The notes under the pieces are model-generated. The model had not been told where the DNA came from and made no database searches. It saw only the letters and a program-made list of their open reading frames with translations. The position numbers and the translations under genes are program-made. 64,000 bases of DNA from Candidatus Bathyarchaeota archaeon (lineage in GTDB: Archaea > Thermoproteota > Bathyarchaeia > Bathyarchaeales > Bathyarchaeaceae), in the NCBI GenBank assembly GCA_963697165.1, contig CAVOMX010000011.1:96001-160000 (forward strand), given 5' to 3'. Numbering within the stretch: position 1 is the first letter of the stretch; each line of letters opens with the position of its first letter. Shown piece by piece: positions 3,936-17,015 of this stretch.

Positions 3936-4037
3936 TGGCGGGCCCGAGGGGAATTGAACCCCTGACCTACGGATTAAGAGTCTCAGCCTAGTCCCAATGG
4001 ACCAGTCCGCCGCTCTGCCTTGCTGAGCTACGGGCCC
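3936..4037 (-). tRNA. tRNA-Lys(CTT) with 25-nt intron (3982-4006) at position 30/31; CCA encoded
   Basis: Reverse complement folds: GGGCCCG/CGGGCCC acceptor, GCTC/GAGC D arm, GCGGA-CT-CTT-AA-TCCGT anticodon arm after intron removal, AGGGG-TTCAATT-CCCCT T arm, GCCA end. Confidence 0.95.
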
Positions 4038-10378: not shown

Positions 10379-12876
10379 CTAATGTTTTCTCCTGTAAAGC
10401 ACTAATAATGCTATGGCAACCAGAAACAGCACAACAAGCAGCAAAGAGACAAGAATCCACCAAGAGTCCTGAACAACAGAAGAGAACATTATTTGCTGAT
10501 TAATATTCGAGTTGACGGTTACAGTTCCAGACGACAAAGAAGCCATGTAATCAGCTGGTGCAACAACAGAGAAGGAGTAGTCGCCGCTTTGCACTTCGAA
10601 ATTTATTGTGTACGAACTGGAGCTCTTCGTCTGATCGTTAAAGGTTACAGTCCAACTTGTTTCTTCGGGCAAGCCTGACGCAACGAAGGATACTTGGTAG
10701 GTTTGGGGGCTAGGCGAGTAATCACCTATTGCATAAACTATGTGATCATATGAACCCACATAAACTATACCATTGGCAACAGCAGGAGAAGAAACCACAG
10801 CATCACCTGTTTTGTAATTCCATAGTTGGGCGCCTGTTGTAGCATTCAAATGCGTAAAAGTTTTTGTCTTCTGAACCTACGTAAACCTTGCCATCAGCCA
10901 CAGCAGGAGAAGAATCCACGTAGCCACCTGTTGTGTAATTCCATATCATATCACCAGTAAGAGCATCTAATGCGTAAATGTTGTGATCACGTGAGCCAAT
11001 GTAAACTATGCCGTCACCCACTGCAGCAGATGAATACACTGGACCACCAGTTGTGAAATTCCACACCAAGTCGCCGTTAGATGCATCCAAAGCGTACACC
11101 TTCTGGTCCTGTGAGCCAACATAAACCAAACCACCAACCACAACAGGCGACGACAGAACCATATCACCTGTTTTGTAACTCCATAAAGGATCACCTGTTG
11201 AAGCATTCAAAGCGTAAACTTTGTTAGTCTAATGAGCCTATGTAAACTATGCCGTTGGCAACAGCAGGAGAAGACATCACAATCTTGCCGCCAGTTGTGT
11301 AGTTCCATACGAGGTCACCAGTTAAGGCATCCAAAGCGTAAACCTTGTGGTCCTGTGAACCAACATAAACCAAACCGTCAGCTACCGCAGGAGAAGAAAC
11401 AACATAAAGGTCTGTTTTGTAATTCCAAACATGAGCTACCCGTTAAAGCATCCAAAGCGTAAACGCTTGTGATCATACGAGCCAACATAAACAATACCAT
11501 TAGCCACTGCAGGAGAAGATAAAAGAATCATATCTCCGGCAGTGAAAGTCCATATGACAGTGTTGTGTAGCTCCAGATCGAAACCTACCATGCCTGTTGT
11601 AGCGTTCAATGCGTAAACTTTGTGATCATGTGAACCTACGTAAACTATGCCGTCAGCTACTGCAACAGAAGAATCCACCTTTCCTCCAGTTCTGAAAATC
11701 CATACAAGACTCACCATCTAAAGCATCCAAAGCGTAAAGCTTACCGTCCCATCCGCCCACGTAAACTATACCGTTAGCAACATCAGGACGAGAAACCACA
11801 AGATCATCTGTTGTGTAATTCCATACCAAGTCGCCGTTAGATGCATCCAAACAGTAAACCTTGTTATCTTGTGAACCCACGTAGACCTTGCCATCAGCCA
11901 CAACAGGAGAAGACGATACGCCCCCCCTGTTTTGTAATCCCAAATATGAGCACCCGTTAAAGCATCTAAAGCGTAAACCTTGCTATCTTCTGAACCTATG
12001 TAAACCTTGCCATCAGTCACAACAGGAGAAGAATACACTGGACCACCAGTTGTGAAATTCCATACTAAAGTCGCCGTTAGATGCATCCAAAGCGTAAACC
12101 TTGTTATCTAATGAACCCACATAAACTAGGTCATTGACAACAGCAGGAGAAGAAACAACATTATCTCCAGTTTTGTATGCCCATATGAGGCTCCCATTAA
12201 ACGCATCTAAAGCGTAAATGTTGTTGTCTATTGAGCCAAAGTAAACTATGTTGTCAGCCACTGACGGAGAAGACAACATTATTTGACCGCCTGTTTTGTA
12301 ACTCCAAATATGAGTACCGGTTGAAGCGTTCAAAGCGTAAACCTTGTTGTCAACTGATCCCACATAAACAATACCATTAGAGTATGCGGGATCTGTATCC
12401 ACGAAGTATTCTGTTGTGTAGTTCCAGACTTCAGCACCATTGACTGAATCCAAACAATAAACATTGTAGTCTTCTGAGCCTACGTAAACTAAACCATCAA
12501 CCACTACAGGACGAGAAACCACTACCCCACCAGTTACATAATTCCATGCTTGAGTACCGTTAGTTGCATCCAAAGCGTAGATTTTTCGGTCATAGGAACC
12601 AACATAAACCAAACCGCCAACCACAACAGGAGAACCTACTTGACCACCAGTGTTGAATTTCCATAAGGTCTGGTTTGTTTTAGGCGCTGTTGACTCTGAC
12701 TTGCCAGTATTCGCTAGATTCTGGTGAAACATAGGCCAATCGTCTGTTTCTGAGGGCTCCGCCGAGACTTCAGATGCACCAGCAGATTCGATTGTTGCGG
12801 ATAGGAAGGTGATGGAAAGGGGTGAGACTAAAAGGAGCACAGCCAAGACTAGACAGGTAATGGCTTTTTTGTTCAT
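10379..12876 (-). pseudogene. Secreted, membrane-anchored PQQ-repeat beta-propeller protein, multiply frameshifted
   Basis: Signal peptide, DWPMFHQN, tandem ~40-aa SSPAV..G.VYVGS.D.KVYALDA..G..W repeats over at least 6 ORF fragments; C-terminal SGLP..TSW domain and TM anchor. Confidence 0.85.
10730..12670 (-). repeat. Coding tandem repeat of ~120 bp (PQQ-like blades)
   Basis: Recurrent aagcgtaaac, caggagaaga and ccatcagccac units at ~120 bp spacing. Confidence 0.85.
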
Positions 12877-13312: not shown

Positions 13313-13810
13313 TTATGATTTTTGGGTTGTTTCTTCAGCTCTCCTTTGCTGCAATAGTTCTTTGGCTAAATCTCGGGCATGCTCATGATAGATTAAATCA
13401 ATAATTTTGTTCCAATCAAAATCTTGTTTCATGTTATAATGAGAAAATTCTTCACGAGAAAACATGACAAGCTTGTCTGAATCATACAAAATCCTGAAAG
13501 CCAAAGAAGGATTGTCGGGATGATCATGATGAGTGCGCACAATCTCGCAAACCTCATCAACAAAACTTTTGTCGTACCCCAGTTTCTTTAGAATAGACCC
13601 GGCTATTCCTGGACCATCCTGATACTGTTTTTGGATGGTGCTTCCGCCGATGTCATGCATGATTATGGAGCAATAAATCAGTTCTTCCAAATCTTGTGGG
13701 ATATCAAAGTTTTTTTTGGAAATCTCAAAGACTCTTCTGGTGTGAGGTATTCCGAAATCGTTTTTCTTCAAGTATGGTTTTGCTAGTTGAAACACGGTTT
13801 CCCAGTTCAT
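13313..13810 (-). CDS. HD-domain protein
   Basis: H(TRRV)...MHDIG...HHD...YDSDKL. Confidence 0.85.
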   Translation of the reverse strand: MNWETVFQLAKPYLKKNDFGIPHTRRVFEISKKNFDIPQDLEELIYCSIIMHDIGGSTIQKQYQDGPGIAGSILKKLGYDKSFVDEVCEIVRTHHDHPDNPSLAFRILYDSDKLVMFSREEFSHYNMKQDFDWNKIIDLIYHEHARDLAKELLQQRRAEETTQKS

Positions 13811-13920: not shown

Positions 13921-14451
13921 TTATTCTTTATTGTAAACTTTTATTCCCCAAGATTTGAATGCTTGGATAAAGCTGGAACTGCTCAAAGTTTTGAGTATAG
14001 CATAGCCTATTCCCGACATCACAATTAAAGTGCTAATTGTAACGCTTGCAATCATAGCAACCCATGGTGGAATTTGTAATCCAAAGATGTCTACTTGGAA
14101 ATTAAAGAATAACCAAAGGTAGCTGCCTACAGTTACTCCAATCGGCAAAGAACCAGCAGTGCAAGCCAACAGTTGCCGTTTTCTAAGCAGAAAAACTATG
14201 GTTGCTGCGATTAAGTTAGCAATTGTTCCAAAGACAACGTCTTCAGTACCCAACCAAACGTATGAGTTACCCACAAAGCATCCAACAGTTACACCTGCGA
14301 TTGCTGGCCAACCAAACAAAGCTGCTAATGGAATCAGACAGTCTGCAACACGCAATTGCACAGGACCTTGACCCATTGTTCCTAAAGCAATGACTAAAAC
14401 TGCATACAGACTTGTAAAAACTATCGTTAAAGTTATTTCATTTGTTTTCAT
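13921..14451 (-). CDS. queT: QueT-family transporter (ECF S component)
   Basis: LYAVL..GPVQLRVADCL..GVTVGCFVGN..DVVFGTIANL. Confidence 0.85.
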   Translation of the reverse strand: MKTNEITLTIVFTSLYAVLVIALGTMGQGPVQLRVADCLIPLAALFGWPAIAGVTVGCFVGNSYVWLGTEDVVFGTIANLIAATIVFLLRKRQLLACTAGSLPIGVTVGSYLWLFFNFQVDIFGLQIPPWVAMIASVTISTLIVMSGIGYAILKTLSSSSFIQAFKSWGIKVYNKE

Positions 14452-14552
14452 TATCTATTTTTACCTCCCCACTCCGGGATTTTTAATGCGGAACGGGTGG
14501 GAGGCTCCACCTACCCGCAAAGAGAAAAGATTATAGGAATCTCTTAAAAACA
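14452..14552 (-). promoter_or_regulatory. queT promoter plus structured 5' leader (candidate riboswitch)
   Basis: TTTTTAAG box ~24 nt before a GC-rich leader with alternative stems; SD GGAGGT 11 nt before ATG. Confidence 0.55.
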
Positions 14553-14990
14553 TTTAGCATAGAATAATAATCCTTCGCGTCATAAAATTAGTTGTAGACA
14601 ATCATTTTTAAGTCGCTATAAAACATCTCAAAATATTCCAAACGGGTCATCTGCAACATTCTGTATAGAGTTGTCTTTTTCCCATTCTTCGGTTAACCCT
14701 TCTGGCGTGAATATGTTGTTTAATCTTTTTCGGCAATCTTGAAGAAAACACCCAGTTTAAAGGCATCATCTTTGGAAAAGAAAATGTTGTCAGCATTGTA
14801 CTTTCTCATTAACGAAATTGTTTCGTTTGGTTCAATCGTGGTCAAAGCTTGGGTTTTTCGGCTAACAGGAGTTACGGGACACAAAAACAAGAACAACATG
14901 AACAAGAATCAAGAAAAAAACTACACAAAAAACCAAACTAACATTCATATTAGAAGACTAATAACAGATGATTGTTGAAATCAATCTTTT

Positions 14991-15650: not shown

Positions 15651-15880
15651 TTAACAAGCTAACCTTCTCTTTCTGATGTTCCTCTCAATCTTTTTAACAA
15701 GAGTATTCAGTTTCTTTTCACCAGATTCGTTTTTATTAATCCATTCCTTGGCAAACTTCCCGCTCTGAACATCCTTAAAAGCTTGACACATCTTCTCCTT
15801 AACGCTTTCATATGCAAGCTTAGTTCCAACAGTTACTCGACCATAATTTGCAGTCTTCGAAACAGCATTGAGCATATGTA
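15651..15880 (-). pseudogene. ilvC: Remnant of the native class I ketol-acid reductoisomerase C-terminus
   Basis: AVSKTANYG..TVG..VKEKM...KDVQSGKFAKEWI resembles IlvC SDTAxYG...IQSGxFAxEW; no N-terminal domain. Confidence 0.75.
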
Positions 15881-15968
15881 TATTTTTTAACCTATTCACT
15901 AATGTCAACAAGAAAAAGAATTTTTTATTAACTGCAACCTATTTATTAGAATCGTGTGAGGAGTCATT

Positions 15969-17015
15969 ATGGTTGAATTGGATTTCGGAGGAATAAAAGA
16001 AACTGTAGTAACAAGAAAAGAATTTCCTGTAGATCAAGCAAAAGAAATTCTAAAGGACGAAACAATTGCTATCCTAGGATATGGTATTCAAGGACGGGCT
16101 CAATCCTTAAACATGAGAGATAATGGATTTAATGTTATTATAGGCCAAAGTAAGGAATTTCCAAAGAATTACGAACAAGCAATAGAAGACGGATGGATTC
16201 CTGGGAAGACATTATTTTCGCTGAAGGAAGCTGCTGAAAGAGGAACCATCAAACAGTATCTATTGACTGATGCTGCGCAGAAAGAATTATGGCCAATAAT
16301 CAAAACCACTTTTAAAGAGGGTGATGCACTATATTTTTCACATGGATTTTCAATAGTTTACGGAAAACTTACAGGGGTTATTCCTCCACAAAACATTGAT
16401 GTTATCTTGGTTGCACCAAAAGGTTCTGGAACATCAGTAAGAAAGAATTTTCTGGCAGGTAGTGGAATAAACAGCAGTTTTGCAGTCCATCAAGATTTCA
16501 CAGGTAGAGCTGAAAATAGAGTGAAAGCCATTGGAATTGCTATTGGCTCGGGTTACTTATTCCCAACCACATTTGAAAAAGAAGTATATAGCGATCTAAC
16601 GGGAGAAAGAGGAGTTCTAATGGGAGCACTTGCAGGAATAATGGAAGCACAATATAATTGTTTGAGGGAAAATGGTCATAGTCCTAGTGAATCATTCAAT
16701 GAAACTGTAGAGGAATTAACTCAAAGTTTAATCAGGTTAGTTGACCAGAACGGCATGGATTGGATGTATAACAATTGCAGTGAGACTGCAAGAATAGGAG
16801 CCCTTAGATGGAAAGAAAGATTCAGGGATACTGTAAAACCCCTATTTGATTCTCTTTATGAATTGGTAGCTTCAGGAGAAGAAGTAAAAATTGTTCTTGA
16901 AAAAAGCGCAGAATCTGATTATGGAAAGAAATTGAACGAAGAATTAGAAGCGATGGGAAATTCTGAGATGTGGAGAACTGGTAAGACGGTGAGATCATTA
17001 AGACCTGATACATAA
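15969..17015 (+). CDS. ilvC: Ketol-acid reductoisomerase, Bacteroidota/fungal-like type
   Basis: GYGIQG, SHGFS, VAPKGSG, SDLTGERGVLMG; N-terminus LDFGG..E.VVTR.EFP. Confidence 0.95.
   Translation: MVELDFGGIKETVVTRKEFPVDQAKEILKDETIAILGYGIQGRAQSLNMRDNGFNVIIGQSKEFPKNYEQAIEDGWIPGKTLFSLKEAAERGTIKQYLLTDAAQKELWPIIKTTFKEGDALYFSHGFSIVYGKLTGVIPPQNIDVILVAPKGSGTSVRKNFLAGSGINSSFAVHQDFTGRAENRVKAIGIAIGSGYLFPTTFEKEVYSDLTGERGVLMGALAGIMEAQYNCLRENGHSPSESFNETVEELTQSLIRLVDQNGMDWMYNNCSETARIGALRWKERFRDTVKPLFDSLYELVASGEEVKIVLEKSAESDYGKKLNEELEAMGNSEMWRTGKTVRSLRPDT

Follow-up and report, generated by a model that had tools for sequence, protein, structure and literature searches.

The closest described relatives of the system studied here are the preQ1 riboswitches, of which three structural classes are found 5' of queT genes. 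Class I (preQ1-I, RF00522, with types I-III) is a small H-type pseudoknot located upstream of queCDEF or queT, class II (preQ1-II, RF01054, also known as the COG4708/queT motif) controls queT by enclosing the whole Shine-Dalgarno sequence (SD) in a pseudoknot helix, and class III (preQ1-III, RF02680) also precedes queT. According to the available text of a 2024 review on preQ1 riboswitches (PMC11625349), class I depends on a C directly ahead of the 3' strand of P1, on a G5-C Watson-Crick floor that closes P1, on U6 and on an adenine of L3, whereas a C together with U-A-U triples is required in classes II and III. Class II is described in that text as limited to Bacillota, and the word 'archaea' appears nowhere in the main text of the review.

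In archaea, natural riboswitches have barely been validated. According to a paper from 2021 (PMC8241225), no riboswitch other than that for fluoride had been determined experimentally in this domain, and the natural representative from Thermococcus kodakarensis is presumed there to be translational. That riboswitch belongs to a bacterial class that is also present in archaea and has another ligand and another fold, whereas the element described below has been found only in archaea.

This element lies in a stretch of 64,000 nucleotides from a Candidatus Bathyarchaeota archaeon (hereafter the window), in the leader of a queT gene, where the original prediction had placed a candidate translational riboswitch for a 7-deazaguanine or some other ligand. 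The comparative data indicate that the leader is very probably a metabolite-binding riboswitch, and that it probably represents a new class of archaeal translational riboswitches with OFF logic.

The queT leader and its distribution

The leader occupies positions 14519-14463 of the minus strand (approximately 57 nt as read from the sequence). It was found as predicted, with its first G at 14518, the SD GGGAGGT at 14469-14463, a spacer of 11 nt and the ATG at 14451, and the box TTTTTAAG is indeed located at 14550-14543, 24 nt ahead of G14518. The leader also forms the GC-rich island that had been claimed, with a GC content of 0.55 for positions 14470-14529 versus 0.25-0.40 in flanking stretches. 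The downstream open reading frame (13921-14451, minus strand), considered the regulated gene, encodes a 176-aa protein of the 7-deazaguanine transporter family, which was correctly named as QueT (PF06177, E 5.4e-24, above the cut-off).

The box TTTTTAAG is part of a predicted BRE and TATA box at 14543-14558 (minus strand). Among 191 leaders, 142 have TATA-like words between -38 and -29 relative to the first G, compared with 9 and 7 in control intervals, and the upstream profile of the leaders shows an A-rich, BRE-like zone and then a T-rich one. From the usual archaeal spacing between TATA box and start, transcription is predicted to begin at most a few bases ahead of 14518; a start downstream of the element had been named as evidence against a riboswitch, and the TATA/BRE element puts the predicted start just upstream. 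The SD is complementary to the 3' end of the 16S rRNA of the same genome (GGATCACCTCCT, on contig C14), in which a strong SD word lies near a possible start in 147 of 805 long open reading frames, versus 44 in the control. RNA libraries, represented by contigs only and with 8-12% of words shared, contain contigs that span the leader and the gene (14333-14516 in X3; 14400-14521 in X2) and show neither strand nor start, and a second X2 contig extends through the promoter to 14637.

A gene for an HD-domain protein (13313-13810, minus strand; PF01966) is located 110 nt downstream of queT and is possibly co-transcribed with it. Such a gene is found near queT in 14 of the loci L001-L110, mostly from the same genus and including queT-queC-queT operons. 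With a mismatch-tolerant pattern, a single copy of the element was found in the window's genome.

Three other features of the window were observed. A gene for a PQQ-type beta-propeller (10379-12876, minus strand) is split over several frames (12013-12876, 11766-12086, 11653-11943, 11436-11717, 10803-11210 and 10379-10849, all on the minus strand), either as a pseudogene or by sequencing frameshifts. A stand-alone C-terminal fragment of KARI (15651-15911, minus strand; PF01450) is encoded divergently from a full ilvC (15969-17015, plus strand). Finally, a 99-nt tRNA (3939-4037, minus strand) was found by Rfam and missed by ARAGORN, and its length suggests that it carries an intron.

To follow the leader from the protein side, QueT was sought in 61 related genomes and detected in 50 of them, at 55 places. 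The motif stands at queT or at the head of its operon in 53 of these places and in 49 of the 50 queT-bearing genomes; the two remaining places correspond to genome G054, which has a related longer leader, and to a contig edge. The mismatch-tolerant pattern matches 29 of 30 orthologous loci, more than chance can account for; in two of the 29, the motif heads a queT-queC-queT operon rather than adjoining the matched gene, and the thirtieth locus (L027) is a variant. The motif was also present in 16 of 17 further regions, and five more were recovered by a covariance model. Locus L027 (1339-1499) shows a variant motif 130 nt upstream, a 33-codon open frame and a decayed canonical 3' half directly before queT, an arrangement that looks like the replacement of one motif copy by another.

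An exact-pattern search of genome contigs yielded at least 119 loci. Among the matches listed, 80 are titled, and these are assigned to Bathyarchaeia (65), Nitrososphaerota or its classes (9), Methanomethylicota (1), Asgard groups (3) and bacteria (2). The two bacterial labels (L106, Acidiferrales; L107, Krumholzibacteriaceae) were rejected, as the neighbours are 62-68% identical to proteins of the window's genome and the contigs are archaeal; bacterial or euryarchaeal instances thus number 0 of the 80 titled loci among the matches listed for this one exact pattern. In the phylum, the covariance model matches 28 of 151 genomes, always 5' of queT: the 28 motif-bearing genomes all have queT, and the motif is found in none of the 77 genomes without it. 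The element is not universal, since 46 queT-bearing genomes of the phylum lack it; 20 queT leaders from this motif-negative group (20 of the 46 genomes plus paralogues) gave no model match, and one of them was recognised by eye as the longer variant named type C below. Sampling the phylum of genome G207 gave matches identical to those for the phylum of the window, where G207 groups, which also speaks for an archaeal origin of the two contigs with bacterial labels. Of 121 genomes from the phylum of an Asgard-labelled one, 24 match, 23 of them 5' of queT and one cut by the contig end. From the comparison of all these loci, the element is judged to be real, structurally supported and conserved across two archaeal phyla.

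Other collections were also scanned. A metagenome scan for variants of the core of stem P1a gave a single genuine match out of 45 (L232, 5' of a QueE-like gene), the other 44, with no que gene downstream, being regarded as chance matches. A viral scan gave 38 pattern matches, of which the model scores six, at no more than 19 bits, and the top four have no que gene downstream.

Among the 119 matches listed, 109 are followed first by a queT-like gene, three by a queE-like gene (best matches are QueE models, with scores below their cut-offs) and one by queC. The others comprise an unclassified membrane protein followed by queC (one), a frameshifted queT-like gene (one), incomplete contigs (three) and a locus with no match (one). 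In addition, queC is found at most 2.5 kb downstream in 22 of the 80 long-flank loci listed. Riboswitch regulons are usually recognised by such a link to several gene families, here three, that are unrelated but serve a single pathway, and because queC and queE-like genes are also found behind the leader, the case for a 7-deazaguanine is strengthened beyond that provided by queT alone. Two loci hold unusual genes: on a Nitrososphaerota-labelled contig, a glutamine-amidotransferase-QueC fusion (L095:3252-4703) lies behind a motif-headed queE-like gene; in L062 (1653-2498, minus strand), the motif heads a 282-aa membrane protein without Pfam or NCBIfam match, followed by queC, and this protein is a candidate for a new 7-deazaguanine transporter.

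Helices of the leader and their covariation

All the structural elements lie on the minus strand. The 5' strand of stem P1a (U-GCGG, 14515-14519) pairs with its 3' strand (CCGC-A, 14491-14487). Between them lie, from 5' to 3', the conserved loop start G-U-R-R (14511-14514), with candidate pocket residues; the 5' strand of P1b, GUGG (14507-14510), a putative anti-anti-SD that would pair with 14500-14497 in the presumed ON state; the anti-SD GCCUCCC, which is the 5' strand of P2b (14499-14505); the 5' strand of P2a, AC plus CCG (14494-14498), whose CCG pairs with CGG at 14476-14474 and whose AC can pair with GU at 14472-14471; and the junction UU between P2a and P1a (14492-14493), whose 3' U is kept in all variants and may contact the ligand. 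The A-rich linker L3 (14477-14486) ends in a conserved AAA-H-CC and leads to the 3' strand of P2a (CGG, 14474-14476), defined from the alignment, and to the SD (GGGAGGU, 14463-14469), which is the 3' strand of P2b.

The original prediction distributed these segments over two mutually exclusive folds, one with the SD free (fold A) and one with the SD buried (fold B). The inner stem of fold A (GUGG/CCAC) does compete with fold B, but its outer stem (GCGG/CCGC) coexists with it in an H-type pseudoknot. In other words, P1b and P2b are mutually exclusive because both need the cytosines 14500-14499, and P1a is compatible with either of them.

In sequences collected by pattern, the core is fixed by the pattern and its invariance is in part a product of the search; a protein-first alignment of 28 sequences, filtered with two mismatches allowed per block, shows the same invariants. 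Among 188 instances, the loop starts with GTGA (119), GTGG (32), GTAG (31) or GTAA (6); GTRR was demanded by the search pattern, yet its G and T are invariant in the protein-first alignment too. G14514 can form a wobble pair with U14492 on top of P1a, and this G-U is seen in 132 of 132 sequences. The junction reads TT in 173 of the 188 instances, TGCT in 10, AGTT in three, AT in one and AGCT in one, with the last T demanded by the pattern, and L3 ends in AAACCC (116), AAATCC (49), AAAACC (22) or ACATCC (1). The variable part of L3 is mostly 5-6 nt long (109 of 133) and contains no P4-like hairpin. A GUU/AAY pairing and a G-Y role of the tail Y were considered and dropped, as this base is A in 22 of the 188 instances.

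In an alignment of 132 sequences, P1a together with P2a/P2b is 92.9% paired versus 84.8% when shuffled, and two-sided cells number 202 versus 80, a count reached by none of 500 shuffles; part of the 202 reflects a register shift between the 5- and 6-base versions of P2b, and the instances are kin, so shuffle counts overstate significance. For P1a plus P1b, the corresponding values are 93.7% versus 88.4%, with 57 two-sided cells versus 16, and RNAalifold predicts this hairpin unaided. The outer pair of P1a is standard in 176 of the 188 distinct instances, with six pair types, and its co-change index on the QueT tree (174 tips) is 0.69, compared with 0.23-0.47 for 13 other column pairs. In the core of P1a, the 188 instances contain one compensatory change (GUGG/CCAC, in L232). 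The CCG/CGG of P2a is invariant in the 132-sequence alignment, where the pattern fixes it, and its GG is lost in three of the 188 instances. Both the P1a core and P2a are thus nearly invariant and, in the sequences compared, show little covariation.

The pairing that buries the SD does covary, as fold B requires. Native anti-SD/SD duplexes have a mean energy of -11.7 kcal/mol, compared with -9.65 +/- 0.13 when partners are swapped; of 42 non-canonical anti-SDs, 38 form a better duplex with the 3' strand of the same leader than with those of others. Rewritten versions of P2b include ACAUCUC/GAGAUGU, CUCGCA/UGCGAG (in an Asgard group) and UUCCGAC/GUCGGAA (in L172-L173). The lengths of the C-run in the anti-SD and of the G-run in the SD also change together on the QueT tree, with an index of 0.79 (controls, 0.29-0.58). 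Conservation and covariation in orthologous leaders, proposed at the outset as a test, are hence both strong, and the covariation supports a constant stem P1a plus an anti-SD/SD pseudoknot. Comparison of the leaders also establishes the gene set and the position between promoter and start codon. In L172, L173, L174, L175 and L127, QueT has an N-terminal extension of approximately 35-50 residues, P2b is rewritten and the SD is no longer of the GGAGG type.

The cells of P1b are 95.8% paired in the 132 sequences, and its four pairs are complete in 137 of the 153 long-loop instances; in longer loops it grows to 6-7 bp, over the whole anti-SD. It is missing from 35 of the 188 instances, which are the short-loop forms. 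Co-change on the tree is small, joint steps being nearly additive, and the support for P1b comes mainly from wobble tolerance and lengthening. A further pairing that had been put forward, a GCGGGT/ACCCGT stem with a GGA/TCC pseudoknot, was discarded: it shows no covariation, with one of nine pairs two-sided and 95 of 500 shuffles reaching its score.

Scored in isolation, P1a plus P1b and P2 alone have the same energy (-17.0 kcal/mol each); the pseudoknot itself is beyond such scoring. The SD is only partly free in fold A, since the minimum-energy fold contains a weak local UCCC/GGGA hairpin over four of its bases. This tail hairpin (CCC/GGG) reaches -4 kcal/mol or stronger in 78% of the 188 instances, and it is weaker or gone at non-canonical SDs (median -3.05 kcal/mol, four at 0.0). 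It is regarded as a by-product because it is not rebuilt where the SD has been rewritten, whereas P2b is. The folding energy of the whole element is no better than chance over the four spans scored (z -0.7 to -1.5), and a z of -3.0 is reached only by the 41-nt 5' hairpin.

The longer type C leader was found by pattern in three of 401 genomes (G054, G636 and G142), 5' of queT or queT-queC. The loci are L214:1350-1465 (G054), L297 (G636) and L299/L295 (G142), and L300 (G173) holds the 3' half only. Type C keeps P1a, the G on top of it, the YYG/CRG pairing (UUG/CAG in two and CCG/CGG in one), an AGCU junction, shared with an Asgard variant, and AAAUC. It carries a structured insertion of approximately 55 nt with a GAUGA loop, and a separate hairpin over the SD; the leader of L214 has no meaningful Rfam match. 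Judged from three sequences, type C may combine this aptamer core with a different platform, which narrows the universal core to P1a, the G, the junction U, AAA-H-C and P2a.

Relation to known riboswitch classes

A search with the Rfam preQ1 models had been suggested for this leader, which no family of Rfam 15 matches. At the gathering score, only a tRNA matches in the window, and positions 14400-14700, scanned at E up to 10, give only four chance matches (E 2.7-9.4), none of them to preQ1-I. The preQ1-I model has two weak matches genome-wide, on other contigs and below the cut-off. The proposed resemblance to class I was not borne out by Rfam, nor by a conserved C ahead of the 3' strand of P1.

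Several features are nevertheless shared with preQ1-I, such as the small H-type pseudoknot, the genes downstream, the G and U atop the 5' strand of P1 and the A-rich L3, and in type III the SD likewise pairs with the P1 loop. The G-U after P1a and the AAA in L3, comparable to U6 and the A-rich L3 of preQ1-I, are invariant in the protein-first alignment, although the U is lost in type C. In contrast, the base that precedes the 3' strand of P1 is here a U instead of a conserved C, and the floor would be G-U instead of G-C. The specificity base of class I is a cytosine in an AC or UC step; at the corresponding position here, a C is confined to type C and to the TGCT/AGCT variants (11 of 188), and it alternates with U within one lineage. 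The archaeal element also differs in its longer loop, its P2 of 9-12 bp, its competing inner helix and its archaeal hosts.

Like preQ1-II, the element is located at queT and holds the whole SD inside a pseudoknot helix, and the conserved U between the 5' strand of the pseudoknot and the 3' strand of the stem is presumably comparable to a residue of that class, an equivalence that we take from its numbering. It lacks, however, a match to the Rfam model, the extra P1/P4 helices, the P1-P4 set of the HLout knot and the C-U-U junction; there is no layer of U-A-U triples, CCG/CGG being the helix by the pocket, and the SD lies several pairs away from the junction. The γ-pocket C of preQ1-II and preQ1-III, which reads the Watson-Crick face of the ligand, is absent as well, the loop start being G-U-R-R and the helix under the junction CCG/CGG; the C of AAA-H-CC might take over the role of reading the ligand. 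The parallels with preQ1-III are the position 5' of queT, an anti-SD/SD pairing apart from the core and, for type C, a similarly large insertion with a separate SD helix. The element is shorter (approximately 57 versus 100 nt), and it lacks the five-helix, two-pseudoknot architecture, the C7-type base, the U-A-U floor and an Rfam match. We also presume a general likeness to the NAD+-II and guanidine-III riboswitches, in which we take a stem with internal loop or an H-type knot to be combined with a 3' tail that pairs back and carries the SD; their gene context is different, and there is no Rfam match to them either.

Because the cytosine specificity base is missing at the matching positions, the element is not a member of preQ1 classes I-III. 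From its sequence features, it would act like a preQ1-I type III or a preQ1-II switch while belonging to none of the classes. A conserved structure in the 5' leader, an expression platform and a coherent regulon, the general marks of a riboswitch, were all found. No description of the element was found in the literature searched, although it may possibly figure as an unnamed entry in the supplements of motif-discovery studies.

Ligand, mechanism and alternatives

PreQ0 (7-cyano-7-deazaguanine) is the base that archaea insert into tRNA en route to archaeosine. A reading in which the leader binds preQ0 with OFF logic, as a new structural class acting on translation, appears reasonably likely. 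PreQ0 is the likeliest ligand because QueF, the enzyme that makes preQ1, is nearly absent from the class (above the cut-off in one of 121 class genomes) and ArcTGT, which inserts preQ0 according to the available text of PMC11298593, is present in relatives (above the cut-off in five of five motif-bearing genomes tested). ArcTGT was not found in the window's own genome, which is 81% complete. OFF logic is expected because genes for import and synthesis call for repression by the ligand.

QueC above the cut-off is absent from the window's genome and from four close relatives, these being 93-96% complete, which suggests salvage; the relatives are therefore expected to depend on import. Genomes G000, G001, G018, G019 and G023, which have no QueC above the cut-off (G001 has ArcTGT), are probable preQ0 auxotrophs relying on QueT.

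In the mechanism proposed, we infer from the features described above which of the two states binds the ligand, that binding turns expression off, which residues form the pocket and what the ligand is. Transcription would start just 5' of the element and P1a would fold first. Without ligand, P1b (GUGG/CCAC) would hold part of the anti-SD, leaving the SD free or weakly paired, and QueT (QueC or QueE in relatives) would be translated. The ligand would bind where P1a and P2a meet, probably contacting the conserved G-U, the junction U and the AAA-H-C of the linker, and would stabilise an H-type pseudoknot in which CCG/CGG and the pairing of the anti-SD with the whole SD block ribosome loading. The equal energies of the ON fold and P2 represent the balance that a ligand-driven switch needs. 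It can be proposed more tentatively that the class is archaeal in origin and occurs nowhere outside archaea (Bathyarchaeia, other Thermoproteota and Asgard), and that its one core is combined with three kinds of expression platform, namely an exchange of strands with P1b, a plain closure of the knot, and the separate SD hairpin of type C.

The regulon fixes the pathway and not the molecule, and there is some chance, rather small in our estimate, that the same fold and OFF logic serve another member of the pathway or a neighbour of it, such as preQ1 from bacteria, 7-carboxy- or 7-amido-7-deazaguanine, the free archaeosine base or a guanine compound. The C of the preQ1 classes is absent from the matching positions of the pocket, and changes in the pocket can switch the ligand, as stated in the available text of PMC11625349; one leader (L095) heads both a queE-like gene and the amidotransferase-QueC fusion. 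The same text describes bacterial QueT as transporting preQ1 exclusively, which clashes with preQ0 as ligand unless archaeal QueT differs. Against a different ligand stand the scarcity of QueF and the use of preQ0 by ArcTGT; moreover, QueC yields preQ0, and an effector common to import and synthesis genes has to be appropriate for both.

The near-invariant unpaired bases and a fold that covers the SD would also fit a protein site at which ArcTGT, QueC or another RNA-binding repressor clamps the pseudoknot and the RNA senses no metabolite. This is unlikely, since no regulator gene accompanies the motif among the downstream genes scanned, the motif is kept in genomes with and without queC, and it resembles three known small-molecule classes in size, in pseudoknot form and in gene set. 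A structure that works independently of any ligand, as thermosensor, constitutive damper of translation or stabiliser of the 5' end, is very improbable: G+C-rich stems at the 5' end of the transcript and a tail hairpin able to cover part of the SD agree with it, but such roles need neither invariant loop bases over two phyla nor a gene set limited to a single pathway and drawn from three unrelated families. A DNA-level site for a transcription factor at the transcription start, to which the fixed distance from the TATA box might point, is hardly credible, as compensatory changes between distant positions, the acceptance of G-U pairs on the transcribed strand and SD pairing are features of RNA.

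If the leader is indeed a preQ0 riboswitch of a new class, it would constitute a fourth RNA solution to 7-deazaguanine binding, and, as an element of approximately 60 nt, it could be used as an inducible switch for archaeal genetics. A widespread class restricted to archaea would mean that metabolite sensing at the RNA level is common in TACK and Asgard lineages. It would also explain how the supply of the archaeosine precursor is controlled. For archaeal QueT, it would be the first direct clue to the transported substrate, and it would point to salvage of community-derived preQ0 by many Bathyarchaeia.
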